A stretch of 64,000 bases of DNA. It comes from Pseudogymnoascus verrucosus (taxonomy: Eukaryota). The notes below the pieces were generated by a model. It was not told the origin of the DNA. It worked only from the letters and a program-made list of their open reading frames with translations, and made no database searches. The position numbers were made by a program, and so were the translations under genes. Location of the stretch: NCBI GenBank assembly GCA_001662655.1, contig KV460206.1; one strand, 5' to 3'. Each line of letters starts with the position of its first letter. The first letter of the stretch is position 1. This document shows, piece by piece, positions 2,083 through 42,201 of the stretch.

Positions 2083-3682
2083 TCAAACTAATCCCATCCT
2101 TAGCAATTTATTGCCTAGTTCTAAGAAATAATAATCTGCATACACTAGGCCATGATCGCTGTAGCGAAATATCGCGAACTCATTGTTATTTGCCGTTGCA
2201 TTCTTTAATATCGATGCCCAATCGGGCTCGGCGACTTCGATCTTGCCAGAGGCTGCATTGACTTTAAGTGGTGCTAGATCTGTCGCGAGGGAGAGATCGA
2301 CAGTATCTTTGACGATGTGCCGCACTGCATCCAGATAAGGTGATCTCTCGGTAGCAAGTTGCTGGTGAAGGATCAGTAAGCCGTTAGCAGCGATCATGCC
2401 AGCGGATGTATCTCGCAATAAGGACGGCTCATTGTCGTCGAAATCCCACAGTGGCACATATGGGTGGTGGTGCGTCGCGGATGCAAGCTGCTTCAAGAAG
2501 TGATCAGACAATGCGGTGGCTGCTTGCAGGATCGCGGGATCTTTGGTCCAGGCGTACGTCTGGGCGAAGCCGAGGATGCCCCATGCTTGGCCACTACAGC
2601 AGTCCATGGTCAGAACGAAAAGGCGTATAATGGGGCCTCATACGTACCGACTCCATGTTGACTTGTCCTTGTATCCCTGATGTGTGAACTGTCGCTGAAT
2701 AGCGCCTGTTTGAGGATGGAAATTGCACACATGGAAACTCGAGCCGTCAGGTCGAATGATGGCTCTCGCAACAGCGTGTGCATGCGCAGTAGCGATGTTG
2801 ATGTATCGCTGATTACCTGTGTGATGGCCAGCGTAGTAGAGAAGGTCGAGATCTGCACACATCAATCAGCATCTCACAATCGATATTAAAGTGCGCGTGA
2901 TGGAAAATGCATACTGCACATGCTATCAATGATAACTAAGAAGTTCTCTTCCTTGTCCGTGATGCTGTAGCGATTGCTAAACTGTTTATCCCAGCTCCTA
3001 ATTGCGCCCACTCGCTCATCATACCGTGATGCTAGACTCTCGGCAGCGGTCAAGATGGACTTGAAGCTTCGCGCATTGCCTGTCAACTCCCAATCAAGTC
3101 GCAGCGCGGGCATGATGATGAACCCAATATCGTGCGTGTTTCGTCGAAGCGCCATACTATGCAGTGGTTCGGACCATATTTGACATAGGTCAAGGAGCTG
3201 CTCGTGCAAATTTGTGCGGTCGATCTCAGGGTCGGAAATGGGGAAGTTTTGGGGAAATCTGACACTCCGCTCGAGCAAAGTGTACACACTGCCAGGGAAA
3301 AACCCACATGTCCAGAAGGTGGCTTCACGGCTTATATATTTACCAGCTGTTTCGCCTGAGGGGAGGACGTGTTCGGGAAAGCCCTATGAATAGGTTCAGT
3401 CGGTCTGGATACGGCAATTCAAGTTGGAGTACTTACCCCAGCTGGCGAAAGATGGGCAGCAGTCCTCCAGATCTTGCCGGCTCGTGACTCGCCGAACAAC
3501 TTCTGCATATCGACGTCTAGCTGCTTGGTGCGTGCAACGGGGGAGAGGGGATTTTCTTGCGTTTCGAATACCAGCGAGGAACTCCCATTTGAGGTGATAT
3601 TGCCGCTGCCATTGAGGTGACCGACTAAAGCGTTCGAATTTCCACGCTCTGATTCGGATGAAGGTGGATCTGCCACAGCCAT
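2083..3682 (-). CDS. GH88 unsaturated glucuronyl hydrolase, multi-exon, no signal peptide
   Basis: Spliced pieces give WTCGFFPGS, THDIGF, IIDSM, STWSRGQAWG, RDTSA and YADYYFLE, motifs of GH88/UGL. Confidence 0.85.
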
Positions 3683-4369
3683 TATATCTGGTGCAGTGAC
3701 GCAAGGTAGTATTATAATCAATGTCGATTTCAATATCTGTTTCTAGTCACTATCGCTCCCTAAACGCAGTGTATAATGGAACAACTGCATTGTTCGGAGG
3801 TATCACCGGGTTATATACGTTGATATATGCCATAATTATCTATACAGTAATAAATTTATTGCCTAATTCACCTACCATACCCGTGCTGGAACTGTAAAGG
3901 ACACATCTTGCAGAGCCAAGGAGAAGATGGCTCCGTCATCCCTGTGCGGGGCAGCCATATCCAACCCCTTTGGATGGGAAGGTCGCTTTGGAGAGGTGGG
4001 TGAATCGTCGGCCGATCAATATGCGCTTTGCGGCTCTCCCATTTCAGTTGATGTTAATTCATGTTGTGTCTGTACGTAGTAGGTGGGATAATTATAGCGG
4101 GATATTCGGGATGTTCAAGCCCGGCCGATCATCGCGCCGATGCCCGTTGCCCCAGAGAGAGAGTCGCGCTTCCCACACTGAACCACAGCCAATTGCCAAT
4201 TGCCCCACCAAAGTCTTTCCCCATTTCACATATGAGCACAACAGCGCACGAAGAACCCCAGTAGGAAAAGACTGTCGATGTATAAACTAGAGTTTATGAA
4301 ATATAGACATCGACGAGAACAAATATAAAATAGAGAAGAGGGCCGCATTGAAAATTCAGCTACAGCCGC

Positions 4370-6322
4370 ATGCAATATATATCTGAATCTGTCGTTACAG
4401 AGGCCACCAACATGGCCATCGACTCTAGCCCAATGCCACAATCCTGCTTTAATCCCCTTGCCGGGAATCCTCACAAAACCCGCGACGATATAATCGCTGC
4501 TGTTCATACCCTCTTTAATCCATTGCTGCCCGCTTTCTCTGCAGGCAGGGCGCGCGTACAGCTCGATTCATCAGGCTCAACCTGGGACCGCGCCGCCTGC
4601 GATTTGGAAGGATTCGCGCGTCCCCTCTTCGGACTTGTACCTCTCGCCGCAGGCGGATCCCACTTTGAGCATTGGGACATATATCGTGAGGGCCTGAAAA
4701 ACGGTACTAACCCAGCACACCCGGAATACTGGGGCCCGGTCACGGACATGGATCAGCGACATGTTGAAGCCACAGCTCTTGGATATGCATTACTCGTCGT
4801 TCCACAGCACGTCTGGGACCCCTTCGATGAGACTACAAAGAAAAATGTTGCCGACTGGTTGATTGAAAGCCGGAATACAAAACACGCGAATAATAACCAC
4901 AAGTTCTTCCGAGTTGTGGTCGATCTTGGGCTTGAGAAAGTCGGAGTCGCGGTTGATCAAAGCGGCACGGAACAATATCTCCAAGACCTGGAAGAGATGT
5001 ATGTTGGCGAGGGCTGGTTCCGTGATAATGGCAATATAGAGGATTCCCGACGGCTTGATTGGTATAACGCCTTCGCATGGCACTACTACGGACTCCTCTA
5101 CGCCGTGCATCGTCCTGAGGACCAGGCTCGTAGCGCTCGATTCCGGGAACGAGCGCGGCTGTATGCCCAGCATCTTGTTCATTGGTATGCGGATAGTGGT
5201 GCCAATGTGCCCTATGGGCGAAGCCTGATCTATCGCCAGGCGACAGCTGCATTCTGGGGGGCGTTGGCTGTCGCCAACGAGGAGGTCCTGCCTTGGGGTG
5301 TGCTTAAGGGCTTATACCTGCGAAACCTGCGATGGTGGGCTTCGCAACCTATCTGTCGACGCGACGACGGCCTTCTGACTTTGGGATACGCCTACCCGAA
5401 TCAACTGCCGACTGAGCGCTACTGCTCGACCGGTTCGCCATGGTGGTCGATGAAGGCCTTTGCACCCTTGGCTCTTTCAGCAGACCACCCCTTCTGGACA
5501 GCGGACGAACTACCCATGCCCAGCAGATCTCCAGTATATGCAGACCCAACTGCAGGAATGGTCTTCACACACCAGCAAAGTCATACCGTGATGCTGGTGT
5601 CGGGCCCAGGCACTACGCAGATGATGAGAGGCGTGCCGGAGAAATACTTCAAGTTTGCGTACTCTTCTCGCTACGGATTCAGCGTGGAGAGCGATGCTTT
5701 GGCCTTCAATCAAGCCGTATTCGATAGCATGATTGGCTTCAGCGATGACGGGAAGCACTATCGTGTGCGCGAACATGTTAATACTGCTGCCCTGGCGGGA
5801 GACGTTCTCTTTTCAACCTGGACACCATGGAGCGATGTCACGGTTGAAACATGGATCATACCAAGTGGAGCATGGCACCTTCGTGTCCATCGCATCACTT
5901 CTCTACGGTCCCTTCAAACGATAGAAGGTGGCTTCGCCGCCCCTCGCACGGATTTTGATGCTGACCAAAGGTTTGAGGTAGGTTCCTCGGCGTATGTGGT
6001 GAGCAAACTGGGCGACTTTAGCGGTATTCTCGACGATTCGCCTCACGAACGGCTTGCTAGAGTCAATGCTCCTCATGGAAACACTAGTTTGATGTTTCCC
6101 CGGACTTTGATTCCGCAGCTCCTCGGGAACGTGGAGGCGAACGTACCAGCTGTATTTGCGAGTGCTATTCTGGCGGGTCCCGATGTGCAAGCGCTGTTGC
6201 AGACGTGGACTAGTCCTCCAAAGATTCCGACAGTAGAAGAGCTGGAGAAGCTAGTGGAAGAAAGGGGAGTCACGATCAAGATTACAGAGGACTACAATCC
6301 GACGCGTCAATGGTACCCTTAA
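4370..6322 (+). CDS. DUF2264 (GH154-related) protein, intronless, 650 aa
   Basis: LEGFARPLFG, PEYWG, GRSLIYR, Y.STGSPWW, KFAYSS.YGFSV motifs typical of DUF2264; divergent from GH88. Confidence 0.8.
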   Translation: MQYISESVVTEATNMAIDSSPMPQSCFNPLAGNPHKTRDDIIAAVHTLFNPLLPAFSAGRARVQLDSSGSTWDRAACDLEGFARPLFGLVPLAAGGSHFEHWDIYREGLKNGTNPAHPEYWGPVTDMDQRHVEATALGYALLVVPQHVWDPFDETTKKNVADWLIESRNTKHANNNHKFFRVVVDLGLEKVGVAVDQSGTEQYLQDLEEMYVGEGWFRDNGNIEDSRRLDWYNAFAWHYYGLLYAVHRPEDQARSARFRERARLYAQHLVHWYADSGANVPYGRSLIYRQATAAFWGALAVANEEVLPWGVLKGLYLRNLRWWASQPICRRDDGLLTLGYAYPNQLPTERYCSTGSPWWSMKAFAPLALSADHPFWTADELPMPSRSPVYADPTAGMVFTHQQSHTVMLVSGPGTTQMMRGVPEKYFKFAYSSRYGFSVESDALAFNQAVFDSMIGFSDDGKHYRVREHVNTAALAGDVLFSTWTPWSDVTVETWIIPSGAWHLRVHRITSLRSLQTIEGGFAAPRTDFDADQRFEVGSSAYVVSKLGDFSGILDDSPHERLARVNAPHGNTSLMFPRTLIPQLLGNVEANVPAVFASAILAGPDVQALLQTWTSPPKIPTVEELEKLVEERGVTIKITEDYNPTRQWYP

Positions 6323-7557
6323 CTTTGCCTAGATATCATTAGAAAACATGTCATGTATTTCGTGGTCTTACATCTAAGTGGCATAAAGACTTCTGTAAGG
6401 CCTAATTACCGGAATTGAGTTCTATTGATTAGCTACCTGACCTACATATTATATACTGAGCTAACTTATATCTTATATAACCTGGTTTCCATAACAGGCC
6501 ACAAGCGTTGCATCCTAATAGTACGTGTAAGCCACTCTAGAAAGTTGAATTGAGACCACTCGGCATTTCGCTCGGCCACAGTGCCCATATCACGCTTTCA
6601 GACAAAACGAAACTTTCAATACTCAACATATTATAGACACTGTATTCAATTTAAACGTCAGGTTGCCCATTTGAATTACCATTACTTGCACTGGTGTATC
6701 GTTGAGGTATAGTCGGTAAGTAGGGTTCATTGGTGGAAAAACAACTAAAGTAGCTCGGCTGACTAACCGAGTCGACGTCGTTGGAAAGCGGGGAAAGCTG
6801 CATTTCCCCGGATTCTTCACTTAGTCTCTTAACTTACCATAAGATCTCTTGGTAAGAAATTAAGTAAGCAATATAGGAGGTTGAAACAACTGAATTCGCG
6901 ACTCTAATAACAGCACTATGTAGGCTCTATATATACACATGTAAACCCCTTCTAAGAGGGCTTTATACCCTCTAATCCTCATATATATCCACTTGATAAA
7001 CTATAACAAGTTATTGAGCCGCGTTACGAAGTCTAGGCTTCGCTGATCAATATGTTTGCACGATACGTATATCCCTTTTAACCAGGGGTCGCAGCACAAT
7101 CTGTTGGGGGAAACGGACATTCCCGTGGGATACGGTAGGCTTTTACGCCCAAAATGACAGTTTTCCCCAGGGAATTGTCCCAGCTTCCCGGTCGGCTTGC
7201 GAGTAAGACAGTGGCACCATACTATTGGAAGCCACTGACTCAAGCCCAGCTGAGCCCAGGAAGCCCAGCTCGTCAGGGTTTTGGGGGTTTCCCCCAGGCC
7301 TACAAATAGCGTACGTAGGCCCGTAGATTAGGTAGGAATTCAATTGATCTATATACCCTAGTTACTGTATTCTACTGTGAAGCTTCTGCTCCGTTGCCCG
7401 AAGGATTGATTACGGTAGTCGGAGATTACCACACAAGTTCGTGTGTGGTTCCCCGCATTCTGCAATTACCTTCAACACAATCCTGCACTCCAATTCTGCG
7501 CGTGACCATAACTCTATTTGAACGAGCTTGGAGTTGAAAAAAGGCTCAAGGTACTCA

Positions 7558-10489
7558 ATGATGCGACCTACAATCCTTCCAGACTCCGATGAGGCGATTA
7601 CGGATCAAGACCCAGAGCAATGGAGGTTGTCCCGGGTCACAGAAGAGACCACCGCATGCCAGTCATGTCGGCATCGAAAGTTAAAGTGCTCTCGTGAAAC
7701 GCCTTCCTGCTCTCAATGCTCCCGACTGAGTGCGTTTCTGTATCCATGGTTGATATGGCACAGGACTGACGATTGAAGCGTGCCCTTGCGTGTACGATAA
7801 GAAACGGCAGAAGCCCGGCCTGAAGAACGGCGCGATCGAGGGTCTCAATAGACGAATTGGTCGGCCACTCATGCAAATACTCATTGGCTCCAGTAGCTGA
7901 CACTCTATAGGTGTCTTAGAGAGGCTTATAGTCAACGGTAGTGGCGAGGAAACGGGGCCAGCGCCCCTGGGAGCTGGATCCCACGGCTGCATCTACCATG
8001 CAGCACTCCTTATCACCAATTCAATGGGTGGAGATATCGGCGGCCGTAACGGATGTCTTGACGAAGCAATGTTGCCCGATTGCAATTTAGCAAGAAACCC
8101 TTTAACAGAGCTAGGGAAATCCAACCATACAACGCTAGAAGCAAATAGCGCCAAGAGACAGAGAATCGATTCGCCGGGTCCTACATTTGACGATCAGCTC
8201 ACATCATTACCTTCAGAGCATATTTTGGACTTGGTCTTCCAGGTATATTTTATGAAGATCCATCCATGGCTGCCCTGTATTCATCAGCCTAGATTCGAGG
8301 CGCGGCTGAAGGATCCCCAAAACGCGACAAAGTTGACAGTCGTTGTTCATGCCATGATCTGTATCACAATGAAACACCTAAAGCTAGACGATATCCGGCT
8401 AGAGGAGTCAGAGAGAGATCGGCAGGTTCGAGTATCTCGCGATGCAGTCACGCGGATTGCAATGACAAGTATGTCAGTAGAAAGCTTGCAGGCCTTGGTC
8501 ATTGTTGCCTCTGATTATGTACGTTACGGTGTGATAATTGTCGGCCATGCTAATCCCAATTATAGATGGGTGAAGGCAGTCTAGTCAGCGCGTGGCCTAT
8601 TATTGGATCTCTGACAAGGACTGTCGAATATCTGCAGCTCACCATCGAGGTAGATGAGAAACCGCCGCCAGCGCTTCACGGGGCTCTCAGACTGCTGGGA
8701 GATTCGACGAGTTGGGCCGAGACTGAAGAGAGAAGGAGAGTATTCTGGAACGTTTTCATTTTAGACCGGTGTGTTCTCTACAATATTCCTCACTAGTCAT
8801 TATCTGATCAGTGCATAGGCTATGTTCTGTCATCACGGGGTAAGCCGTTCAATCTGACTTGACTGGCTTGAGCAACAACTAACCAATTTAGATGGAGCAC
8901 GAGTCTAACATCCGAAGATGTTTGCCGCCGACTCCCTAGCGATGGCAATATATGGGCCAGAGGCGAGCGAGCTATCACTCCGTATTTTGGAATCTGGAAT
9001 AAATCTGCTGCCAAGATCGGAAACCCAATCACTTTCCACCAGGCGCTCTCTCCGTTGTCTCCTAACGGCTTTGCGACCAAGCTAACTGATACATCTCCCG
9101 CGTCAGAGTCCTTGAATGTAGGCGCATTTGCATATCGAATCGAGGCAACTGAGTCACTGAGCCAGGTGACCTCGTATTTCCTACAACAACCAGTCAACTT
9201 TCATAATAAGCAGGAGGTTCGCAGCTGGTTAACGAGGTTTAAGGAATTAGATCTGAGATTAGTTCAGTATGTCTCCTAACCACTACACTTTGACCAAAGC
9301 CCTGATTCTTATAGCTGGAAAACCTTTCTCCCCCCAAAGTTCAAAGATTCCAATATATCTCATGATCAAGCAGTCGTCACAATGGATCCCAACCTGACTT
9401 TAGCCCACATTACTCACAACGCGTCCATGATCTTACTGCATCAGCACATTGCTTACCCGCCTGCTGAGCTCCGAAATATGGTTCGACTTCCTAGCTCTTG
9501 CAGCGCCGAGACATGCCAGCTCGCCGCAGTTGAGACGTCGTCAATAACCTATAAATTTCTCACATACGGCGGGTCTGAAGTGGCTGTAGCACAGTTCCCT
9601 TTCTGTGCGTTTGTTGCTGCCCGAGTATTACTTGGTGAGTCGTGATGCACTATTTACGGATAGCAATTAATTCAAGCTAGTACACTGGAAAGCTACTGGA
9701 AACAGCCTGACTAATGAGTTCTTTATTCTACTGGAGAGTTTACGGGATATGTCTCGCAGGTGGCAAGGTAATTTATCTACGTCTCCTCATCGTCAGGCGA
9801 GCACCGGTGAAATTGATCAAGGACACCTTGATCTTGCTGCGGAATATGCTGCCTTGCTCGAAGCAATGCACGCAAAGATTCTCAACAAGCCCGACTTGTC
9901 GACCGATAATCTATTCCAATTCAACATTACCTCAGACCTAATAGCGGTCATGGCTCAACCAGTCACGTCACATCACTCGACTGCTTATTCAAGCGACACA
10001 GCTGATGGCTGTGGGCTCTCTACAGCTGTGGATGAAAATGGTATCGTTGATAAAAGCAGCTCCGCTACTACGTGGAGAGCTCCACAAGCAGGAGGTAGCC
10101 ATTGTCCTGCCTTAGATCAATCGTTTAACAACATCAACCCATATGCCAAAAATGACGGCAAACAATCTTACAATCTACTTTCTCCAGAGACAATCTCCTC
10201 AGTACATACCTTTTTGGGTAACGAAAATACGTCAGTATCTGCCATGACAGCGCTGACCAACCTGCACCACACTCGAGGTCAGATGGTCCAGGAACCGATC
10301 GTGGATCCGAGCAGTAACGGTAACATCAGTGTAGGAGATGGAGTGGGCGAAATCGCCGAGGATGACTTGGCCGTCATGTCAAATGGGCTATTTGACCAAA
10401 CGTTTTCTGAATTAGATCGAGTTATCACGCTTGATGGAACGGATTTTAACTTTAATCTAGTTTACTGGAATAGGAATGAGTTTATATAA
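7558..10489 (+). CDS. Zn(II)2Cys6 transcription factor with fungal-specific TF domain, multi-exon
   Basis: [22 protein letters not shown]..(intron)..[24 protein letters not shown]. Confidence 0.9.
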
Positions 10490-10618
10490 GAGGAAGAGTT
10501 TGTATTAAGAGGTACTATTTGTCTTCATAACTCTAAAGTTAATATTTAACCTATATATATTTGCTGTATTTCACTAGTGTACTGTGTAGGTTTATGCTAT
10601 AATAAGTTCAATTCTGTA

Positions 10619-10680
10619 ACGTATTTCACAAGCGAACGAGGCACACAAGCGGGCGAGGCACGAAAACACCAAAATCTAAC
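10619..10680 (+). mobile_element. Orphan Fot1/pogo-like terminal repeat
   Basis: TA|ACGTATTTCACAAGCG start with an internal direct repeat CACAAGCG..CGAGGCAC x2; no partner end seen. Confidence 0.45.
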
Positions 10681-10739
10681 TATTACTACTGCTACTACAC
10701 TGCCACCCTATATAATGACCCTTATTTAATTGCAATTGA

Positions 10740-11714
10740 TTCCTAGTGCCTCTTACACGTACGGGTATTATGTCTAATCTTCTCACATTAGCTATAGTTA
10801 TAGTAGTAATAACTTCTATTATAAAACCTACTTTATTAAAGTTATAGATATCCTACTCTAAGATTCTATATTTTATAACTCTATTTTATATAAGAGAGAA
10901 CTACTCTTAAATTATCTTTAGATCTTTATATTTTACTTGTTTATAATTATACTTCTAACTAAACTTTACTTTGATTTCTATATAACGATTAATGAAGTTA
11001 GTAGTCTAGTTCTTCCTAATAAGGCTCTTACCTTATTTAGACCTTTAGCGTTAACAGCTTTAATGACTATTATAGATGTATGATTGTTAAGGTTGTCTAT
11101 AATCTACTAGTTAGTTAGCATCTATACTTTAATAGACAGTTAGATTATATAAACCTATTTAATTTCTATAGGCATAATAACTTAAGTAGACTTATAGCAC
11201 CTAATTATATAGCTTGTCTCGTTAAAATTCTAGAGGTTCTGTGGCTTAATTTGATATTAAGTTAAGAGTGCATTATACTCTATAAAGAAGGCTTTAAAAT
11301 TAGCTCTATTCTAAGCTTGCTTCTACTAGGTGTTTAAGGATCTTGTACAAATCGTATGGAATTTAGGGTGCGCCTTTAGGAATCGTTGTAGCTAGCGTTA
11401 AGAGGGGGGTAGTTTGCCTAGCTGTAGGTCTATAATAGCCTATAGAATCATAGATCTATCTGTAGGCATTCCGCGAGCCAATTGGTCATATATGAACTAG
11501 CATATTGCAGCTTCCTGCGACGGCGTCAAAAAATTCGATTCTGGCCTCCATGCGCTAGTTGTACAGGCTTTTGTATATGTCGTCAAAGCGTTTCATCGCT
11601 AACCTTGTATTTCGTAGCGACCTAGTTGATTGTATAGGTGTTAGGATGGCTATTATAGAACTCAATTGCATTTGCAAGACGGGTTTTATATTCAGAATCG
11701 CGTTTTGGGGGCAT
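10740..11714 (-). pseudogene. RIP-inactivated Fot1/pogo (Tc1-mariner superfamily) transposase
   Basis: Minus-strand translation from ATG 11714: MPPKRDSEYKTRLANAIEF…ETL*RHI…HGGQNRIFLTPSQEAAIC…R*LQRFLKAHP, then PQNL*NFNETS, the W-N-F-D-E-T-G motif altered by G>A transitions; many in-frame stops. Confidence 0.85.
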
Positions 11715-12856
11715 GCTTGTGGTATTGTGGTGGTATTGAGATGATAATTATGAGGCTACGTGTCAACCACAACTCGCTGTCGCCGCCTACGAGCGAAGCG
11801 AGTGGGTGGACCCGCCAAGTAGACGTTTTAAACAATAAAGATAAAAATGCAGATTCGAGACTCCCTAAGTAAAGTGACTCTGAATACCAGACATGCTCGA
11901 AGTGATACGGAAGGGAGAAAATGCAACATGAGAGCTTCATCTGCTCCCCACCCGCAGACGCCTTGAAATCCTCTCCATTATCACCTCTTGGATCAACAGA
12001 ATCCAAGATAATGCAAAGCATGGGGTTTTAGTGTCAGATACCTATGTTACTTTTTTAAACGGTATCCAAATGGGTATGATTTTAACAGAGATGGTTGTTA
12101 TGGAGACCTAGCGACTTAATAAACCGAATACGACGTAGCCAGCCAATCGCGAGTGGATTACAGTAATTAGACGACTTAGGTCTCAAGATTGTCTAATGCT
12201 ACCATTATAATCATAAAAGAACAACATCTTCTCTCTGCACGGTTTGAGGGGTATACCCCGCGAGTGGGTACGTGCAGTGTGTGAGAATTGCTGGGCACCA
12301 AATTATTTTAGATTTGAATAGGTTTAGCACTTCAATCAGCATCTAGAGTGTTGTACGATTGGAGGAAAACGTTTGTCTTTCTAAGATGGCCAGAGAGCCT
12401 CTTTTTCGGTTAACTTCTGGCATATCGCCATGGAAACGAGATTATTACACTCTACATGCGGCTTATTCCTGTTCGTTCTTGGAACCTCCTGATGTAAGCT
12501 ATTTCTCACCATTGTAGCGGTTAATGAGTTAACCCAAAGAGAAAGGAGAGGGTATTATAATATCTGCGACGATAATTGTTCCACTCTACTGGCTACTTAC
12601 AGGCAGTGAAAATTAGGCAAAGTAGGGAGCAGGTAGATAGACACTGTTATCACTATGCCACGCGAGCGACAATTGATTCATATTATGAGTAGGAATAGCA
12701 AATTGAATTCAATCAGCCTTTTTTGAGTTGGAATATCAATTTTAAACTACTAGATAAGTTCTAACGAGAGGCCACGCAAAAGCTGATTGAAACTGAGCAA
12801 GCCAAGGTCAAACCCATTCTCACTTGTAGCACCACTCTTTCCTTGCCGGGGATATC

Positions 12857-13633
12857 TCAGTGCTGCACAGAGACTGCAAAAAAATGCACTTCTGAAGAAG
12901 CATTTCCTTGGTTGTAGTTCCCGGCCTTGAAATAACTCAACGGCGGGTTCAAGTTTCCCAAACTAATTGTCTTCGCAGCGCCACCATTAATACCCAAGGT
13001 CAGGATACTATTCTCATACCGAATATCATAGCTGAAAGTCGTCTTTAAAGGAATATTTCCAAAAGACGTGTAGTATTCAGGACCACCCGATCGTGACTTG
13101 TGGACTCCCATAGTAAGGTCTCCTTTCGAGTTATAATAAAGCTTTGCCACTGGATAGTTTGATACGCTCGAGTCCATGTGGATCTGGCCAACTATTGTGC
13201 CATGTTTGCTGTCATCGGCCTTAGGTACAGAGAGGGTGGCGCTGAGTCGGTTTTTAGCAGCCTTCGGGTCCCAGCTCGAAGGATTCTCTTCGCGAAGCTC
13301 CGTTCGACAGTACTTGGTGTTTGGAGTTGTCACGCATCCGGAGGACGAAGGTGAACCAGGAACTTTCATGACCATAGCGCCATCTCCACTCTCCGTGAAG
13401 AAGTAATCATGTCCCGGATCCTGGTATCCAGAGCACCCTTCAAGGGCTGACTCGGAAATCGTCGTCGGGCTGCCCGGACTGCCAATGGGAAGTTGAAGTT
13501 CCCAAGTAGAAAAGTCAAAGTTGCCACCAGGAGCGCAGCTGGGATTGAGAGCCCGAGTCTCCAATGCGTAGCCTAGAACCACCGCACCAAAAGCGAGCGA
13601 GAATGCAAGAGTTGACAGGGCAAGACGAGACAT
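12857..13633 (-). CDS. Secreted polysaccharide lyase family 7 (alginate/glucuronan lyase), intronless
   Basis: N-terminal signal peptide; all three PL7 motifs RTELRE, QIH and YFKAGNYNQ. Confidence 0.92.
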   Translation of the reverse strand: MSRLALSTLAFSLAFGAVVLGYALETRALNPSCAPGGNFDFSTWELQLPIGSPGSPTTISESALEGCSGYQDPGHDYFFTESGDGAMVMKVPGSPSSSGCVTTPNTKYCRTELREENPSSWDPKAAKNRLSATLSVPKADDSKHGTIVGQIHMDSSVSNYPVAKLYYNSKGDLTMGVHKSRSGGPEYYTSFGNIPLKTTFSYDIRYENSILTLGINGGAAKTISLGNLNPPLSYFKAGNYNQGNASSEVHFFAVSVQH

Positions 13634-14939: not shown

Positions 14940-16541
14940 ATGTTACATATCGACCCAGCAGCCTCCCCTGGAATTAGAGGCATGATGCTCCAAGATGTCT
15001 TGCCAAAGCGAAATAAAATGTGGTGGTCATACAAGAACTTGCGAACCCTCAATCTTCTTCTCCTATGTGCAATAGTCACTGATATCACAAACGGCTACGA
15101 TGGATCAATGTTGAACGGCATTCAAAGCGTTCCGCAATGGCAGAAGTTCTTCGGTCATCCTACTGGTGCCAGGCTAGGAACTATCTCAAACGGAGTCAGA
15201 TATGGTCAAATTGGAGGCCTCTTTCTTTGTGCACCAATTATCCAGAGGTTTGGAAGGAAATGGCCAATTGCTTTTGGATCTTCCCTTCTTCTAATCGGAG
15301 TTGTGCTTCAAGCTTCTGCACAAAGCTACGCCATGTTTGTTATTGGCCGTATTCTGATCGGATTCGGTAATACTATCCAGCAAACCGCATGCCCAATCCT
15401 TATTTCAGAGCTCGCATATCCAGATCAGCGAGCTCAGATAGTTGGATTCATGATCAGCACTGGATCCTTAGGCTCGCTGATGGCTGCTTGGATTACATAC
15501 GGCACAGCGACTATAGCTGGATCCTGGTCTTGGCGTTCTCCGAGTGCACTACAGGCAATATCTTCACTTTTTCAAATTAGCCTGTGCTTCTTTGTACCTG
15601 AGTCGCCGCGATGGCTAGTGCACAACAACCGCAGGGACGAGGCCTTAGAGATCTTAACAAAGTATCATGCCGAAGGGGACCAGAACTCAGAACTACTAAA
15701 GTTTGAGATTGCCGAGATCGATTATGCTCTTGAGATAGAGAGGGCACAATCTACGAGCTCATGGAAAGAGTGGATCAGAACGGCGGCAAACAGACGCAGA
15801 CTTTGGATCGTTATCACGGCTGGCTTTATCCCTCAATGGACTGGAAATGCCTTGATTTCATATTACTTACATCTGGTCTTGAACTCAATCGGCATTACGA
15901 ACTCTAAGACCCAACTCATTATTAACGGATGCATTAACATAAATGGGGTTATCTGGGGAAATATTTTTTCTGTGCTTGTTAATAAGATTGGTCGACGCCC
16001 TCTATTTTTGTACGGCACGGTGGGAATGTTCTGCGCCTTCTTGATTATAACAATCTTGACTGCAATCAACACTGGCCAGGACTTCGCCAACCCTGGTATG
16101 GGTCATACAACGATTGCAATGATATTGATTTTCGGGGCCTTTTATAAAATGCCCGGCGTTGCGTTCCCTAGTTACACAGCGGAAGTCGCACCTTACGAGC
16201 TCCGTGCAAAGGCATTTGTTATCACAGGTTTTGGGGATGCACTTGCAAATCTTTTCAGTGGATACACTAATCCCATTGCTCTTGCTGCCATAGGCTGGAA
16301 GTACTACATTGTCTGGTGCTGTGTTTTGATCAGCAACTTCTTTATTATGTACTTTTTCTATCCTGAAACCAAGAATCTTTCCTTAGAGGAGGTAGCGCAG
16401 ATGTTTGACGACAGCGCAGCGCACAACAAGCTGGTGGATGAAGAGATGCCGGATGTCAATGCTAAGGACACCGTTGAGATGGGGGAGACACCTAAGCATA
16501 TTGAACACTCCCCTGTTCAAACCGGCAAATTAATTATCTGA
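14940..16541 (+). CDS. MFS sugar porter (lactose/cellodextrin permease-like), intronless
   Basis: NGYDGSMLNG, RFGRK, PESPRWL, QWTGN, GRRPL, PETKNLSLEE; multiple hydrophobic helices. Confidence 0.92.
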   Translation: MLHIDPAASPGIRGMMLQDVLPKRNKMWWSYKNLRTLNLLLLCAIVTDITNGYDGSMLNGIQSVPQWQKFFGHPTGARLGTISNGVRYGQIGGLFLCAPIIQRFGRKWPIAFGSSLLLIGVVLQASAQSYAMFVIGRILIGFGNTIQQTACPILISELAYPDQRAQIVGFMISTGSLGSLMAAWITYGTATIAGSWSWRSPSALQAISSLFQISLCFFVPESPRWLVHNNRRDEALEILTKYHAEGDQNSELLKFEIAEIDYALEIERAQSTSSWKEWIRTAANRRRLWIVITAGFIPQWTGNALISYYLHLVLNSIGITNSKTQLIINGCININGVIWGNIFSVLVNKIGRRPLFLYGTVGMFCAFLIITILTAINTGQDFANPGMGHTTIAMILIFGAFYKMPGVAFPSYTAEVAPYELRAKAFVITGFGDALANLFSGYTNPIALAAIGWKYYIVWCCVLISNFFIMYFFYPETKNLSLEEVAQMFDDSAAHNKLVDEEMPDVNAKDTVEMGETPKHIEHSPVQTGKLII

Positions 16542-18851: not shown

Positions 18852-18890
18852 CAGCAAGCATCTTGAACCTTGAATTTTGTCATCATCATC

Positions 18891-19781
18891 ATGAAACCCT
18901 TCTGGCTGCCCTTCATCAAGTCTCAAAGCGATGACTGGAGCGCAGTGTTAGATCGTAAGGAGCGCAAAAGGATACAAGATCGACTTTCACAGAGAGCAAG
19001 ACGTAATTACTCACGTTTCATTTCCAACATATAAAACTAACGTGAGCTGCTTCTAGGCCGGAAACTGGCTGGGAAAGGAGCAGACCTACTTTGCAGATCA
19101 TGGGAGTCAGCCCGTGACATAGATCTCTCAGAAGTGGGGGGTTCTAATTCTGACCACACCACACAAGCTCTGGGCAATGAAGAAAATCTGGTCTCTGCAA
19201 ATGAAACTCGACCAGGATACAGCTGTGCTGTGTCTCCTACCCATTTCGAACCTCTGCCATCGGCATCAATCGACCTTCAGACCTCAAATTCACTACCACT
19301 TCCGGATCCCGCTATTGACAGTAAATGGCTGGCCCTCTATTCTATGGACTCATTGCATGCCTTCACTACTCTTGGCCGTATGCTCCAGCTAGTCTGTATT
19401 GGATCGCCACAGCCCTATCTAAGCCCCCATCCATCAGCGTCAACTCCTGCAACGCTTGCTCCAACATTGCAGCAACAGCTGGTTCTGCACCATACCTTTG
19501 TGGACATCTTACCTTTTCCGTCGCTTCGTGATAGTATTATCGGTGCACTGCAAATCACGGATCAGGACACACTTTGTAAGGACTTGCCACACGACGAGTG
19601 GCGGCTTTGGGGCTCTGAGCCATGGGACCCTTGTGGGTGGGAGATTAGTGAGGTATTCGTGAAAAAATGGTGGTGGCTGTTAGATCAGGAGATGTTGGAG
19701 ATGACGAATTTTTGGAGGAGGCAGCAGGGTATGTGTCCCTTGGTGTTAGCAGACATCAGGGAAAATTTTAGGACTAGTTAA
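18891..19781 (+). CDS. bZIP-like transcription factor with DUF3425 domain, 2 exons
   Basis: Exon 1 DDWSAVLDRKERKRIQDRLSQRARR spliced (gtaatt…ctaac…tag) in frame to the ORF with HHTFVDILPFPSLRD, WG..PWDP..WEIS..FVKKWWWLL, TNFWR. Confidence 0.85.
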
Positions 19782-20474: not shown

Positions 20475-21466
20475 ATGTCATTTCCCAAGACCTTGAGTCT
20501 TCTCTCCTGTACAGCTATTGTAACGGGCGGCACCCGTGGCATTGGCAAAGGAATTTCGATGGAGCTAGCCCGCCGAGGAGCTTCAGTTGCACTAGTCTAT
20601 GGGAATCCTGCCCGTGCCTCCGATGCTGCCTCAACAGTCGCCGAGATCGTGGCTCTTAACAAAGACATCAAAGCAATTGCAATCTGCGCCGATTTAAGGG
20701 ACAGAGAATCTCCAAAACGAATCGTGGAGGAGACCCTTAGAGCTCTGGGCACAGAAAAGATTGATATTCTAGGTACGTGGCGCTTCGCTGGCCTCTTTTA
20801 GTTCTGCTGGCTTACGCGCAATGAAACATAGTTCACAATGCAGCAAACCCAGAGACAACACCAACGCCGAACGTGACACATGAAATATTTGATACCGTTA
20901 TGGATGTCGGCTTGCGTGCCCCTTTTTTCCTGACACAAGCTGCACAGCCGTATATGCACCCAGGCAGTCGTATCATCTTCATATCTAGCACTTCAGCCCG
21001 ATCGCCTTCACCGGGAATTACACTACCGCTATATGCAGCAAGCAAAGCCGCAGGGGAAAGCTTGGTACGGAGTTGGGCGTTCGAGGTTCGCCAGCTACTT
21101 CCTGAGCCTATAGATTTGCAATGTTGCAACTGACCATGCGTAGTTTGGACACTCACACGGTATAACCGTTAACGGTGAGGACCTACTTTTACAATTGATT
21201 TGGGCACGTTCTAGAATAAGCAAAGTTTGAAGCTGACTGTCTTTCTAGCCGTCTCTGTAGCCTATGTCGAGACTGAAGCTGTTTCCGTGGTTCCCGCTGC
21301 TCAGCTAGAAGCGTACCGTATGGCGAGTGCCAAAATTACTGCTGCAGCACCGCGCCCTGGAACCCCAGATGATATTGCGCAGATTGTGGCCTTTTTGGCT
21401 AGTGATAGTGCAAGGTGGGTGACGGGAAGCACAGTGAGTGCTAATGGTGGGCGACTCTTATTCTAA
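20475..21466 (+). CDS. Short-chain dehydrogenase/reductase, multi-exon
   Basis: TGGTRGIG cofactor motif, YAASK catalytic motif, GTPDDIAQIVAFLAS…WVTG C-terminus. Confidence 0.9.
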
Positions 21467-21599
21467 AGACGTTCAAATGAATGATAAAGCATTTCACGGA
21501 CTGAACATAATTCTTTAGAAAATCATTTTTAAACTTGAAATTTCATTAAGAGATTATTGCGTTTAATACGCAGAAATGTTGTTTAATTTGTAGCGAGAC

Positions 21600-22700
21600 A
21601 AAGCCTAGTGTTTAGCATAGGTAGGTAAATACCTAGCTTAAACGCTATTTCCCTACATAAGTTAGTTATATGCTTTACCCCCTAGGAGTGAAAACCCCTA
21701 AATTTTTACCTTAACTCTAAAGAAGTAATTAGGTTGCTAACCTTACTAGGATAGTAAGGTAGCCTAGGACTACCCTACCTAGAAGCTAACTACTACTACT
21801 ACTATAGTTAGTTATAGGGGTTAAAGGTGTTACGACATAACCTAACAAAACTAGTCTATACTTTAATAAGGGTTTCACTAGAACTATATGTATTACGTTA
21901 TAACCCCTATTTATAGGATGTACACTTATAAGGGACATGCTAGAACTATAGCAAGTGTTATATTATAGATTTATTTTCTAAAATACATTACTATCTTTCT
22001 ATATAATATTAAAAACGTTACAATTATATTAAGGATTATAAATTATAGCAATTATAGAGTGACTCTATTACTAATTTATAGCTAGAGTATAGTAATCATT
22101 AAGCTTCTTTAGTGTAATTAAAGTAGCATTAGTAATTAGGCTTTGTTCTAGTAGCATACTTCTTATATCTTTAAGCTTCTTAATCATTCTTATATACTAT
22201 AGAAAAGCGTAGTTAAGAGTTAGATAAGAAGAGCCCTATAGCTTCTTAGTTAGGTAGCTAAAGATATATAATAGCTTTAACAAGTTATAAAGTAGAAGTA
22301 GAAGTAGAAGTAGAAGTAGAAGTAGAAGTAGAAGTAGAAGTAGAAGTAGAAGTAGAAGTAGAAGTAGAAGTAGAAGTAGAAGTAGAAGTAGAAGTAGAAG
22401 TAGAAGTAGAAGTAGAAGCAGACAGCGTTAACGAGCTTCTACTTAAGGAGGATAGCTTCTCGTATTTTGCGTGTATAGATGGGTGCATCTTCTTAAGATG
22501 CTTCTAAAGATTGCTCGTCGTCTAGCTCTTTAGTAGCTAGCTCAGCATATAGCTACAATCAGTTTGAAGGCATTAGTATTAGATTCTAGCATGTATTATA
22601 TCTAATAAAGTACGGTAGAATAGCCCTTTTGAAAAGAGGATTAATGTAGAATCAGGTAATTAAACTCTTAAAGGCATATATAGCATTAGAATAAGGGGCG
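21600..22700. mobile_element. Heavily RIP-degraded repeat, family not identifiable
   Basis: Abrupt AT- and TpA-rich block without ORFs between intact genes. Confidence 0.6.
22290..22418. repeat. (GAAGTA)n hexanucleotide microsatellite, ~21 units
   Basis: Perfect tandem repeat read directly. Confidence 0.95.
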
Positions 22701-23100: not shown

Positions 23101-24309
23101 TTATATAACCTTGCCATTAAACCTCTCGACCTTGCTAATCGACACATCATCAAGCTGTTCAACTGCTGGACGCAGTGCCCATAGGTCTGTTCCAGGTGGC
23201 GCTTGTAATTTGCTGACAGCCTCTTCTGTTGTCGGATTTCCAGCATCAGCTGAAGCATGAATAACATCAGACGCAGCATATGCTGCAAAGCTCATCTCTG
23301 GGAATTTCCATTGACTCGTACAAGTAGCAGCGGGAACAATAAAATCAATTCCAGCATGGATGCTTTGACCTTCAGGACCTTTGTAGCCCCAGAGATCGAT
23401 TCCGACTTTCGTACCCATTGCAGCCGCTCGTGTGTATGCAACAAGGTTGAAGACAGAGTAATGCCAGCTGCGTGTCCGTACAAGTTCCTTAGGTTGTGAG
23501 CCATCGGCATTTATATCGTCTTTGATACGGGATTGTATCAAGAGTAACTCCTGCTTTGCTATTTCAGCCTTGCCGACAAAAAGTGCTATGCCAGCTTTTT
23601 GCATGATCGCGAATGTGCCATGATTATTTTCGGCAGCACTTTCTATAATCCCAAAGGTGCTATTCGACAGCCAATCTAGGAATTCTAGGTTCCACTGGTG
23701 GAATCCTTCCATGTCACTTCGGGTCCAATCAGAAGCCCCCACCCCTAGAATAGCAGCAGCATCTAAAACGCTAGTATAGCCTTGTGCAAAATCAATGATC
23801 CCAATGTGTCGTCCTGTATTAACCCCAGGGATAATTTGTGCGTGGTTCAGATTCGGTCTCATACGCGTCTCCTCTGACAGGAACCAGGTGCGGATAATAT
23901 TGCTAGCATGTTTTGCATAAGCTTCTCTCTCGGTATAATACCACGCAAGGCTGAGAATCAAGGAGGCTTGAAAGAGGTTCCTGCGGCCTGCATGATCTGT
24001 GTAATTATCTACTTCGGGATTTCGTTCTCCATCGCGTTGCATGTAAGGAACGCCGATAGAACTGCCAGAGGGCCACCAGTATGGGGCCTGGCTAGCGTAG
24101 TCGTGTTTATCGCCGCTTGGTGGATATATAGCTTTAGTTGTGACCGACCAGGGTCCTTGTTTTAACCACTTATCTGCTTGTGCAGTCAAGTAACTCAATC
24201 GAGTCTTCAGTTGAGCATCGCCAAGTTTGATCAGCAACTTCGCCTTCAGGAGCCTGGATCCATCTAAGACGATGGTGTTTGGAACCACATCTTTGTTAGG
24301 TTGTGCCAT
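23101..24309 (-). CDS. PL38-type (Alginate_lyase PF05426 fold) lyase, no signal peptide, intronless
   Basis: DKHDYASQAPYWWP, RDGERNPE, M.PNLNHAQ, NNHGT, QPKEL.RTRSWHYS; first ATG gives MAQPNKDVVP with no hydrophobic leader. Confidence 0.85.
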   Translation of the reverse strand: MAQPNKDVVPNTIVLDGSRLLKAKLLIKLGDAQLKTRLSYLTAQADKWLKQGPWSVTTKAIYPPSGDKHDYASQAPYWWPSGSSIGVPYMQRDGERNPEVDNYTDHAGRRNLFQASLILSLAWYYTEREAYAKHASNIIRTWFLSEETRMRPNLNHAQIIPGVNTGRHIGIIDFAQGYTSVLDAAAILGVGASDWTRSDMEGFHQWNLEFLDWLSNSTFGIIESAAENNHGTFAIMQKAGIALFVGKAEIAKQELLLIQSRIKDDINADGSQPKELVRTRSWHYSVFNLVAYTRAAAMGTKVGIDLWGYKGPEGQSIHAGIDFIVPAATCTSQWKFPEMSFAAYAASDVIHASADAGNPTTEEAVSKLQAPPGTDLWALRPAVEQLDDVSISKVERFNGKVI

Positions 24310-27795: not shown

Positions 27796-29135
27796 ATGGT
27801 GCAAATAGAACAGTAAATATTCACTTATCCCTCTATGTCGGCCGTTTCATCTAACACCGTAACCATAGCCTCTCGTGGACCCGGGCTGTCATCGCGAGCT
27901 TGTTGCTCGCTCCTCTTGCGGGTGCATCCGCTACCCCACCTGTCCCCAGCAATCACGCATTGAACCAGCGGGGACTATGGCCAGATACTGCAGTATTGGA
28001 TGGCTTTAGATTGTTTGAAACCAAGCTTCTGCTTAAGCTTGGATTGCCCAACCTAAAGACTGCGTTAAATCATTTAACTGCACAAGCGGATGACTGGCTC
28101 ACAAAAGGACCTTATACTGTTACAAGTAAGACAATTGTCCCCCCAGGTGGTGACAAGCATGACTATGCCAGTCAAGCACCATACTGGTGGCCAAACCCTG
28201 ATACTGCGGACGGCTGTCCTTATCTCCAACGCGACGGAATTCGCAATCCCGAAGTTGATAACTACACGGATCATGGAGACCGAGGGGATATGTTCCAGTC
28301 TTCATATATCCTTAGTCTCGCTTGGTACTACACTGGGAAGAAAGAATATGCAACGCATGCTGCTGGTATTCTTCGCACCTGGTTCTTGACCCCTGAGACA
28401 CGCATGAATCCGAATCTTAACCACGCACAAATCATTCCTTGTAAGAATACTGGACGAGCTATTGGAATCATCGATTTCTCGCAACAATATACGGCCGTGT
28501 TAGATGCTGCTGCCATCCTAGCCTCTGGTGCACCTGGCTGGACTAAAACGGACCAGAGCAGCTTCCAGCAGTGGAACGTTGAGTTCCTAGATTGGCTCGC
28601 GAACAGCCCATTCGGCATCGAGGAAAGTGCAGCCGCGAATAACCACGGCACATTTGCGTCTATGCAGAAGGCAGGCATTGCCGTTTTCGTTGGAAATAAA
28701 ACTGTCGCCAAGCAAGAAGCTGTCGGGATGAAGGCTCGTATCGATGCCTATATCAGTCCCAACGGCTCGCAGCCTTTGGAACTCATCCGAACTCGCAGCT
28801 GGCATTACTCCACGTTCGATCTCGTTGCATATACACGGATAGCTGACATTGGCAAGAAAGTCGGCGTCGATCTGTGGAAGTACAAAGGACCCCAGGGTCA
28901 GAGCATCCAGGGCGCTGTTGATTTTATCGTTGCGGGTGCTACTGGCGGAGCAGCCGCCTGGGTATATCCAGAGCTTGAGTTTTATGGTTATGCTGCGAGT
29001 GATATTGTGCATGCCGCAGCTGACGCTGGGAACCTCAAAGCGTTAAAGGCGGTTAGTAAGTTGCAAACACCTCCTGGAGGAGACTTGTGGGCACTTCGCC
29101 CTGCAGTCGAGCAGCTCGATGCTATCTCGAATTAG
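27796..29135 (+). CDS. Secreted PL38-type lyase, paralogue of 23101-24309
   Basis: Exon 27796-27812 + 56-nt intron gives signal peptide MVQIEHLSWTRAVIASLLLAPLAGASA; same DKHDYASQAPYWWP / NNHGT / RTRSWHYS motifs. Confidence 0.88.
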
Positions 29136-30243: not shown

Positions 30244-31752
30244 TTATACTGCCAGCCCAGCCAAGACAATATCCTTTACGCTCTCTAAGAACCTTAAAAC
30301 CTCATCTTCGCTATGATAGGCATCATTATAGCCTGCGCCCAAACACAACACGCCTTCCCATGTACTCAAGAACAATCCCATCCCAGTCCTATACTCCGCC
30401 CCAATAACCCACGGATTCTCCACCTTGAATACCCCCCGTTGTGGCTTTATGATTCGGTCAAGAACGCCCATGCTAGACAACGAGACGGAAGGTGAATGGT
30501 CGGGAGGAGGAACAGGGCCAGTCTCAGGCGAGTAAGGAGGTAATTTCCCCGTAGCAATAAAGGGGACCATACTGAGGAAGTCGGCGTTAGGTGTCCAGGA
30601 TTGATAGAAGTCTTTAACTTGATTCAAAGCCAACTCGAATTCATTGAGACTCTTAGTGGCGATCTTGGATTGCCCAACCGCGGGAATGACAACGTCAATG
30701 ACTAAAGAGTAGGCGGAGGCACTGTGATAAACAGCAGCGGCGTGCTGCGGTGAGTTATATGGCTCTTTGCAGGATTGTCGTAGGTTGTTGAGAGAGTAGC
30801 CGATATATCTAGCCTTGCGCTCTTCTTGACCTTTCTCTTGCAGGTCTCTTAATGCCAGGGCGATCCCAGCGTGAAATGCATGCGTAGGAGTTACACCAAG
30901 AGCCTTGCACCTGGCCAAAACCGCCTGCGTGTCTGTGGGCGACAAGTTAATGGCAATCCGCGTAGAGTTCCCTGCGATTTCTGGCACCGAATTGAACGGG
31001 AGGGTGAGGATTTCCGCATCTTTGCGGGCATCTGCATTGGCAGATTGTATTTCCTGAAGCTTCTTTTCTTGGGCAGCATTACGTGTAGGCGGGATGTTAC
31101 CCGCAACTCTGAGATGTGGTGAAAGATTCTTTGATTCGTCTCCGAAGACGACTTCGGACTGGCTGCTGAGCGACGAGAATGCTTCAGAGGCTACACGGAT
31201 GAGATTATCAAGAAGCATAAGCGTGCCGACGCCGTCGATTATGTCGTGAGGACTGTGGAGCACAAGCTCCTTTGTCATCTCGGACTGATGAGAATCGTGA
31301 CGAGGCGTGACTAGATACAAAGTTGCGAATCGACCAATGGGTGGATCCGAGTTAGCAAACTCTTGACCGGTTTGTGCCTTGTCGATAACTTTGAACGTTT
31401 CCTCGAGCCAGTCATTAACTTCAGAAGCGTTTTGAGGTGTCTGATAGACCTTTTTGCATGATTCCGTATCAGGATCATACACCACAGGAGCGGCTAGAGT
31501 TGGATGATCATATCGCATTTGTTTCCATGAGTGTCGAAATGCTTTCTCGATTTGTGCTTCCAAATATGACAGACTCTCACCGATTGTGGTGGGAACTGTG
31601 AGTGTAACACAAGCAGTAATTGCGAAGAAAGTGTGGCCAGTACCTTCATGCATCTTTGCCAACGTCGTATATAACTGCTCAAGTTCGTCGACATTGCGTT
31701 CGTATTTACCAGGAGAAGTCTCCTCCCAGAACTTATTAACTGAATTCACCAT
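30244..31752 (-). CDS. Tri3-like CoA-dependent O-acyltransferase, intronless
   Basis: W.QMRYDHPTLA, HDIIDG (HxxxDG) catalytic motif, SLSSMG..DRII, YNDAYH C-terminus. Confidence 0.7.
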   Translation of the reverse strand: MVNSVNKFWEETSPGKYERNVDELEQLYTTLAKMHEGTGHTFFAITACVTLTVPTTIGESLSYLEAQIEKAFRHSWKQMRYDHPTLAAPVVYDPDTESCKKVYQTPQNASEVNDWLEETFKVIDKAQTGQEFANSDPPIGRFATLYLVTPRHDSHQSEMTKELVLHSPHDIIDGVGTLMLLDNLIRVASEAFSSLSSQSEVVFGDESKNLSPHLRVAGNIPPTRNAAQEKKLQEIQSANADARKDAEILTLPFNSVPEIAGNSTRIAINLSPTDTQAVLARCKALGVTPTHAFHAGIALALRDLQEKGQEERKARYIGYSLNNLRQSCKEPYNSPQHAAAVYHSASAYSLVIDVVIPAVGQSKIATKSLNEFELALNQVKDFYQSWTPNADFLSMVPFIATGKLPPYSPETGPVPPPDHSPSVSLSSMGVLDRIIKPQRGVFKVENPWVIGAEYRTGMGLFLSTWEGVLCLGAGYNDAYHSEDEVLRFLESVKDIVLAGLAV

Positions 31753-31916
31753 CTCTTAATATGCATCAAAACCAAGAATGAAGATGGGCTTGTTTTGTCC
31801 TAGAATGTCTAAGTTGAGAAACTATTATATAAAAGGAAACTTCCTTTTATATACAACTAATGTGAGGAGACTTGACGGTATGTCTCTAAAGAATGTCAAT
31901 ATCGTAGAGCTGCGGC

Positions 31917-36739: not shown

Positions 36740-37197
36740 GTCGACTGTTGTACTGTTGGATTTAGAGTAATGGATACGCTCGTGTGTTGAATAATAGACG
36801 CAGACAAAATTCTGCAGAGCACAGGAGTTGTCTTGCTCCTGAAGAAGCTGAGAAGAGCAGTAATATGGGGTGTGGTGATGAGGAATACAGAAAGAATAAG
36901 TATAAGAAGCATGATGAAGAGTGGGCAGGTCGAATAGTTTTAGGTTATCTTTGATTCGAGGACTACGAGTGGAGGTTAGTGTGGTGGGGTTAGCACCGGG
37001 TAGCTTTACAAACTCTAATGCCTTCGCAGCACTATTGTGGTTAGAAGGCACTAGCAGACATCCGAAGGACCAATCAGAACACATTCCGTTCGGAAGCAAA
37101 ATCATTACATCGCCACATCGGCTCAAGGTTGGAGTCCCGGAGTGGTCCGAGCGCGAATGGGGAATGGAGGATAGAAAGAGGGGAAATGATACTTTAC

Positions 37198-37251
37198 ATC
37201 CGGGGTATAGATCCGGGGTATAGCACTATAATCCTGAACATCCGGGGTATA
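37198..37251. promoter_or_regulatory. ATCCGGGGTATA x3 upstream of phenol hydroxylase
   Basis: Identical 12-mers at 37198, 37211 and 37240; CGG core; function inferred. Confidence 0.55.
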
Positions 37252-42140: not shown

Positions 42141-42201
42141 ACATTCCTCTCGAGATACCCCTCATAGCTTCCAGCTTCAGAAACATCACCCCATTTTCAA
42201 A

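Follow-up and report, generated by a model that had tools for sequence, protein, structure and literature searches.

In a 64,000-nucleotide stretch of Pseudogymnoascus verrucosus DNA (contig KV460206.1, assembly GCA_001662655.1; hereafter the window), which begins at the end of its contig, C1, in a fungal genome of about 30 Mb, we studied the gene at positions 4370 to 6322, whose product carries the domains DUF2264 and DUF2264_C. We propose, with a probability of roughly 0.7, that it encodes a cytosolic oligosaccharide 4,5-dehydratase, which would prime chain ends for cutting by the enzyme of glycoside hydrolase family 88 (GH88) encoded next to it. The proposal builds on the anatomy of the gene, its family, the conservation of its active-site residues and its linkage to GH88, with the chemistry and residue roles carried over from BcGDH, a bacterial homologue.

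A DUF2264 protein that keeps nine of ten BcGDH active-site residues

The gene and its landmarks are as follows.

4370..6322, + strand: DUF2264 and DUF2264_C gene, intronless, 650 residues (636 from the ATG at 4412), predicted cytosolic uronate 4,5-dehydratase
4607..5422, + strand: active-site codon span, from alignments to 9nwf/9o4u and the residue list of PMC12269599
4898..4900, + strand: codon of His177, which replaces the family Trp, from the alignment

The frame held 650 codons without an internal stop, with DUF2264 at residues 37-382 (Pfam, E 6e-116) and DUF2264_C at residues 395-622 (E 3e-45); the PF10022 match scored 387.7 bits against a curated cut-off of 25, with profile positions 1-352 of 353 aligned. 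Because both domains sit in this one frame, and the closest homologues align over 93-99% of the protein, the gene is intronless; all four DUF2264 paralogues of the genome are split into two to four exon pieces. Recent transfer from a bacterium to a fungus was considered as an explanation for the absent introns and was not adopted, the ~60 nearest matches being 58-84% identical and fungal where named, in a protein search that is biased toward intronless genes. Translation may in fact begin at the next ATG (4412), and the resulting 636 residues equal the length of four of the seven members in the 90% cluster of the protein. Signal peptides and membrane spans were judged from hydropathy alone: no signal peptide was seen (best N-terminal 9-residue mean 0.64 versus 2.40 in the secreted lyase PL7 of the window), nor any membrane span (best 19-residue mean 1.52), consistent with a cytosolic location. 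An earlier note on this DNA had described an intronless, signal-less DUF2264 gene, and both features were borne out. It had also presented the protein as a long, largely uncharacterised fungal form. We likewise found no characterised fungal GH154 or DUF2264 member in the literature searched, which lay mostly outside subscription journals, but the two-domain form is not specific to fungi, since Rhizobiales proteins of 614-621 residues carry both domains at 50-53% identity.

Up to an E value of 1, the PDB gave just three matches, all from GH154: the BcGDH structures 9o4u and 9nwf (E 4e-22; E 1e-32 with a profile) and 8oi4 (E 6e-34). NCBIfam yielded a family for none of the DUF2264, GH88, PL7 and PL38 proteins of the window, and a feature-based Atlas search gave no usable match for the N-terminal domain. 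Three other proteins (P0398, P0409 and P0500) carried either a xylose-isomerase-like barrel or GT2 glycosyltransferases fused to DUF2264, a hint that some organisms use the domain in biosynthesis.

The earlier note relied on GH154 being a β-glucuronidase family, a label that is now outdated. GH154/DUF2264 enzymes, including the founder BT3677, are 4,5-dehydratases that make, from a saturated glucuronate at the chain end, the unsaturated residue that GH88 takes as its substrate (PMC12269599). BcGDH prepared from a lacZ-free host lost its apparent glycosidase activity and left aryl-glycosides untouched; on chondrosine it introduced a 4,5 double bond into the terminal glucuronic acid (GlcA), no release of GlcA was seen, and the product was then cleaved by BcGH88 (PMC12269599). 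BT3677 dehydrates methyl-β-glucuronate, and although it and BcGDH are only 22% identical, both dehydrate, with differing aglycone preferences (PMC12269599). It is therefore very improbable that the window protein is an exo-β-glucuronidase hydrolysing off a saturated uronate. In favor of this, the initial reports on two members of the family described exo-glycosidases (according to PMC12269599), and Trichoderma proteins of the clade described below still carry the database name "CAZyme family GH154". Beyond the BcGDH and BT3677 results, however, the authors of that work saw neither an acid/base nor a nucleophile near the glycosidic bond (PMC12269599), and the invariant residues in the window protein are Tyr, Arg and Asn together with one Glu. 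The assay on p-nitrophenyl glucuronide suggested in the earlier note is expected to be negative, since the protein would convert the saturated residue and not remove it.

Ten alanine mutants of BcGDH, W178 included, were inactive; the proposed roles are Tyr229 as base, Tyr289 as acid and Arg285 as helper (PMC12269599). Alignment to 9nwf/9o4u placed E80, R84, N175, N176 and H177 of the window protein at BcGDH E74, R78, N176, N177 and W178, and F180, Y232, R284, Y288 and Y351 at F181, Y229, R285, Y289 and Y354; the E80/R84 equivalence was mapped through the profile alignment, and the numbering of chain 9nwf follows PMC12269599. Nine of the ten essential residues were thus identical, including both catalytic tyrosines (Y232 and Y288) and R284. 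Among the 120 nearest homologues, N176, F180, Y232, R284, Y288 and Y351 were invariant, E80 and R84 were present in 118 (the other two being gaps) and N175 in 104. Position 177 held H in 62, W in 56 and another residue in two of them, and W in all four paralogues of this genome.

The proteins with His177 formed a single clade (FastTree support 1.0, 107 selected sequences). In this tree, Trp proteins from Umbelopsis and Sugiyamaella enclosed the clade, Rhizobiales followed, and the four paralogues were far off. The named members of the His clade were dispersed over Eurotiales, Hypocreales, Helotiales, Umbelopsis and Bifiguratus. One could suppose that His177 confers lyase-type chemistry, so that the enzyme would extend to ends of the L-iduronate type, which it would dehydrate or epimerise, or would cleave glycosidic bonds as an exo-lyase. 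The spacing of N176-H177...Y232 (55 residues from His to Tyr) equals that of N242-H243...Y298 in BoPL38, where H243 is the anti base and Y298 the syn base of an enzyme that also epimerises (bioRxiv 10.1101/2024.12.11.627697). The mechanism of BcGDH was itself called lyase-like by its authors (PMC12269599), the His proteins form one clade, and the Atlas search matched the C-terminal domain to that of an ulvan lyase at 0.82, a value under the reliable range and a lead only. On the other side, a profile comparison of DUF2264 with PL38 (hhalign) gave a probability of 0.09%, so that the equivalence consists of motif and spacing alone; the remaining BcGDH pocket residues, including the proposed O4 acid, are kept, and the His may stand in for Trp merely as an N-H donor. 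The ulvan enzyme P29_PDnc, moreover, was initially reported as a lyase and turned out to be a dehydratase (PMC8511951). We consider lyase-type chemistry unlikely, and the exo-lyase that the earlier note had offered as its alternative less likely than a dehydratase.

Linkage of DUF2264 to GH88

Head-to-head with the DUF2264 gene lies a gene for an unsaturated glucuronyl hydrolase.

2083..3682, - strand: GH88 unsaturated glucuronyl hydrolase, four exons, 476 residues, signal peptide not seen (hydropathy)
3683..4369, unstranded: 687-bp gap between the two divergent genes, putative promoter; CGGCCGAY sites on both strands at 4007-4016 and another at 4122-4129

The GH88 exons (3682-3437, 3383-2915, 2852-2648 and 2593-2083), joined over three GT-AG introns, gave 476 residues without a stop, and one exon was 99% identical to a Pseudogymnoascus protein. 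A near-identical 476-residue protein (P0121) matched the Bacillus unsaturated glucuronyl hydrolase 1vd5 at E 2e-38, with HDIGF and IID kept, whose aspartates we take to be the catalytic pair; the Pfam PF07470 match reached 16.5 bits, below the cut-off. The GH88 neighbour named in the earlier note is thus real. Of the ~690-bp bidirectional promoter postulated there, the head-to-head arrangement and the ATG-to-ATG gap of 687 bp (729 bp from the ATG at 4412) were found, and the promoter function is suggested by this geometry. GH105 was tried as a partner and rejected, as the three PF07470 matches concerned were all on contigs without DUF2264.

The word CGGCCGAY is a candidate Zn2Cys6 site, with further copies at window positions 13949, 14739 and 27837. 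It occurred eight times versus 2.7 expected (none of 100 shuffles reached this), with six copies in the 4.7 kb upstream of cluster genes versus one in 6.0 kb of control, and it was also found in the gaps between divergent GH88 and transporter genes on contigs C10 and C32 (L014:4474; L097:5997). This distribution gives weak support for co-regulation of the cluster, because the word was chosen by eye, is missing from three of the six cluster regions and is present elsewhere in the fetched loci.

The genome contained five DUF2264 loci and at least six GH88 loci, and GH88 lay within 10 kb of three of the four DUF2264 paralogues (on C10, C23 and C12), with a chance of ~1.5e-7 if the two were independent. 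In the neighbour scan of the paralogue loci, which covered 80 of 96 frames, these three loci all had transporters, and a Zn2Cys6 gene was present at two of them; lyase-fold genes were likewise seen at two, PcRGLX-like on C23 and heparinase II/III-like on C10; the locus on C6 had a sugar porter only.

L010:2427-5270, L013:1794-3647, L009 and L014: uronate clusters of C23 and C10

The C23 cluster combined DUF2264, GH88, the PcRGLX-like protein and a major facilitator superfamily (MFS) transporter, and the C10 cluster DUF2264, GH88, the heparinase II/III-like protein, Zn2Cys6 and a sugar porter; the C10 heparinase-like protein has relatives adjoining bacterial DUF2264 genes. The C12 paralogue adjoins a frame (L007:5950-7500) that combines a jacalin domain with the N-terminal domain of a delta-endotoxin (E 1e-28).

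In other fungi, the orthologous pair of Talaromyces proteolyticus had consecutive accessions (KAH8690627/8), and in two Rasamsonia species the locus tags of the pair differed by two; the Hyphodiscus orthologues were on separate contigs. In both gene trees the window pair grouped with T. proteolyticus (SH-aLRT 99 in the DUF2264 tree, for a group of five rows, and 97 in the GH88 tree), and grouping of DUF2264 with the Leotiomycete Hyphodiscus was rejected (p-AU 8e-81; 27 rows, the group being picked after the first tree). This placement fits a joint transfer of DUF2264 and GH88 from one fungal class to another, or else an ancient duplication followed by losses. A bolder version is that the His177 clade is a fungal DUF2264 lineage beside alphaproteobacterial relatives, which moved between fungal classes with GH88, gained a lyase-type His base opposite the catalytic Tyr and would now act on both C5 epimers, through syn and anti elimination or through epimerisation, or else as an exo-lyase, supplying the missing cytosolic step of a PUL-like glucuronan cluster; we hold this to be improbable.

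The bacterial loci compared were the best 80, nearly all from Rhizobiales and closely related. GH88 was within 8 kb at 32 of them, a heparinase II/III-like gene was in the flank fetched at 42, and ATP-binding cassette (ABC) importers surrounded the DUF2264 loci. A gene of the 2-hydroxyacid dehydrogenase family was also near DUF2264 in 57 of the 80 (e.g., L038:3144-4790 and L082:9824-10834, Rhizobiales) and a hexapeptide-repeat protein in 19. A metagenome scan found two DUF2264 loci among 100 candidate stretches, neither with GH88; one, the error-ridden L016, had a sugar porter divergent from DUF2264.

Several of our observations weigh against a GH88-coupled dehydratase. The inactivating position Trp178 of BcGDH is His177 here, and among family representatives (149 of the best 150 at 50% identity) it was W in 143 and H in one; because of this replacement, we regard the protein as a variant working like BcGDH and not as its equivalent. 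The identity to BcGDH is low and confined to the N-terminal domain. DUF2264_C matched none of 14 control genomes, Bacteroides thetaiotaomicron among them, and its equivalence to the second domain of BT3677 is therefore unsupported. As for linkage, one of the four paralogues had no GH88 nearby, 48 of the 80 bacterial loci had none in the flank fetched, and PL7 or PL38 was found in the flank of none of the 80.

By analogy with BcGDH, a dehydratase coupled to GH88 would work as follows. A lyase would cut the polymer outside the cell, and oligouronates would be imported. GH88 would take off the unsaturated residue at the end, the saturated GlcA laid bare by this would be dehydrated by the DUF2264 enzyme, and GH88 would cut again, the two enzymes alternating along the chain until every residue except the last had been released as 5-keto-4-deoxyuronate, which an aldo-keto reductase (AKR) or a short-chain dehydrogenase/reductase (SDR) encoded downstream would perhaps reduce. 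The earlier note had the DUF2264 protein removing the saturated uronate exposed by GH88, the enzymes acting in turn on imported oligouronates. The residue acted on and the logic of alternation would be retained; the predicted step is conversion of that residue into a GH88 substrate, not its removal, with DUF2264 priming and GH88 cutting.

The neighbouring cluster and its probable substrate

Further genes of the cluster extend within 23 kb downstream of DUF2264.

7558..10489, + strand: Zn2Cys6 transcription factor, candidate cluster regulator (Zn_clus E 3e-8; Fungal_trans E 3e-4, below cut-off), exons partly resolved
12857..13633, - strand: secreted PL7 lyase, nearest solved relative 7nde, with a QIH motif versus QVF of 7nde
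14940..16541, + strand: candidate importer of oligouronates, an MFS transporter of the sugar porter family, divergent from PL7
20475..21466, + strand: SDR, cluster membership uncertain
23101..24309, - strand: signal-less PL38-like lyase (PF05426), 402 residues
24976..26228, + strand: AKR, divergent from the signal-less PL38, candidate reducer of keto-deoxy-uronate
27855..29135, + strand: second PL38-like lyase, signal-like N-terminus, in-frame ATG ahead not seen

The ATG nearest to the second PL38-like gene, at 27835, is out of frame, and an 87% identical relative (P0271) starts right there (27835-27930); the gene is possibly a decaying copy or has a hidden first exon.

Together, the neighbours appear to form a complete fungal utilization cluster resembling a bacterial polysaccharide utilization locus (PUL), and we think it somewhat more likely than not that the substrate is β-1,4-glucuronan. 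The best solved match of PL7 was the glucuronan lyase 7nde, at E 2e-57 versus 8e-16 for the best alginate lyase. GH88 takes unsaturated ends of the gluco/galacto type and is not known to take those of the alginate type, which would favor glucuronan. PL7 subfamily 4 has so far held solely glucuronan lyases (PMC11890756, PMC11920209), and among eukaryotic PL38s the only one characterised acts on glucuronan as an exo-lyase (PMC11890756). In this genome, PL7 and PL38 join DUF2264 and GH88 at the window locus only, the other copies being on contigs without DUF2264 or GH88 matches. Among the 63 top DUF2264 matches, four paired with a signal-less PL38 on a putative shared contig (118 PL38 matches; 0.1 expected), and two of these four contigs were shorter than 35 kb.

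Other findings speak against glucuronan. In the PL7 of the cluster the motif is QIH, as in alginate lyases, and both the unlinked copy on C51 and 7nde have QVF. The solved PL38s closest to the cluster lyases are named alginate lyases, and the Rasamsonia and Talaromyces contigs paired with none of the 118 PL38 matches compared. A cytosolic exo-lyase, moreover, could leave the dehydratase cycle partly redundant. We therefore also weighed a different substrate for the same dehydratase mechanism, namely a GlcA-capped plant or fungal wall glycan or a bacterial exopolysaccharide, with the nearby lyases as looser company. The differing aglycone preferences of BcGDH and BT3677 would allow this, the paralogues keep company with different lyases on C23 and C10, and the nearest bacterial loci favor heparinase II/III-like genes over PL7 and PL38. 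The window lyases also lie 6.5-23 kb off, beyond AT-rich repeat blocks. Against it stand the meeting of PL7 and PL38 with GH88/DUF2264 at this one locus of the genome and the putative contigs shared by signal-less PL38 and His-clade DUF2264 in four other records. Another glycan is a possible but distinctly less probable substrate, and we retain glucuronan as the tentative first choice.

The AT-rich repeat remnants interrupt the cluster at 1-2050, 10500-11500 and 21480-22700, with TpA/ApT of 1.55-1.9 versus 0.73, resembling repeat-induced point mutation (RIP); a long six-base tandem repeat occupies 22296-22420 within one of them. Contigs of run X1 gave depth on the window in 30 of 30 bins, and no long piece bridging the genes was seen among them. 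One of these contigs skips 10615-11820, a block that is possibly a polymorphic insertion, and a short high-copy element (depth 215 versus ~6 in the same run) lies at 7100-7450, just upstream of the Zn2Cys6 gene. Other features of the window, at 18880-19781, 30244-31755 and 34657-42995, include a DUF3425 gene within the cluster span and, beyond the cluster, a Tri3-like acetyltransferase and a group of phenol hydroxylase, regulator and intradiol dioxygenase.

Relation to known systems and meaning

Like BcGDH of Bacteroides caccae PUL25 (PDB 9O4U, 9NWF; PMC12269599), the window protein belongs to PF10022 and has genes for GH88 and for a polysaccharide lyase in its vicinity, and the same prime-and-cut cycle is predicted for it. 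Unlike BcGDH, it is fungal and signal-less and carries the extra DUF2264_C domain as well as His177, and the lyases beside it are PL7- and PL38-like where BcGDH has PL35; with a homopolymer as substrate, the GH109 step would be dispensable. BT3677 belongs to the same family and also has a second domain near its active site (PMC12269599). BD-β-Gal (PDB 8OI4), of the same family, is unlike the window protein in being single-domain and is still labelled a galactosidase. As in Trichoderma parareesei, whose glucuronan lyases are TpPL7A, which we take to be 7nde, and TpPL38A, the window has a PL7 and fungal PL38 relatives; unlike in that system, its lyases are clustered with an importer, a regulator, GH88 and DUF2264. 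The logic of a dehydratase working with an unsaturated uronyl hydrolase was first shown for P29_PDnc, an ulvan oligosaccharide dehydratase of a marine bacterium, which accepts saturated GlcA or iduronic acid ends and has GH105 as its partner (PMC8511951); it is unrelated in sequence to GH154 (PMC12269599).

The core dehydratase chemistry is already published, and the window protein would be a fungal variant with one unusual active-site change, from Trp to His. PMC12269599 mentions neither fungi nor other eukaryotes, and the GH154 dehydratase literature since 2025, so far as it was searched and accessible, concerned B. caccae and haloarchaea only. In papers on fungi, GH154 is either listed among the wall glycosidases or given no known function (PMC10055881; bioRxiv 10.64898/2026.07.28.741190), and one paper notes a fungus in which GH88 and PL38 were retained together, without GH154 (PMC11822852). 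No fungal glucuronan gene cluster with an unsaturated glucuronyl hydrolase was found in the literature searched.

If our reading is true, the cycle of dehydratase and GH88, so far shown only in bacteria, would extend to eukaryotes, and the joint presence of GH88 and DUF2264 at four of the five DUF2264 loci of this genome would be explained. The Trp-to-His clade would offer a ready test of the distinction between dehydratase and lyase. Glucuronan has been found in Mucor, in Ulva and in Ensifer meliloti (PMC12423752). It is part of the walls of Mucor and of the slime of rhizobia, and the window would hold the intracellular half of its use by a fungus in one cluster resembling a bacterial utilization locus.

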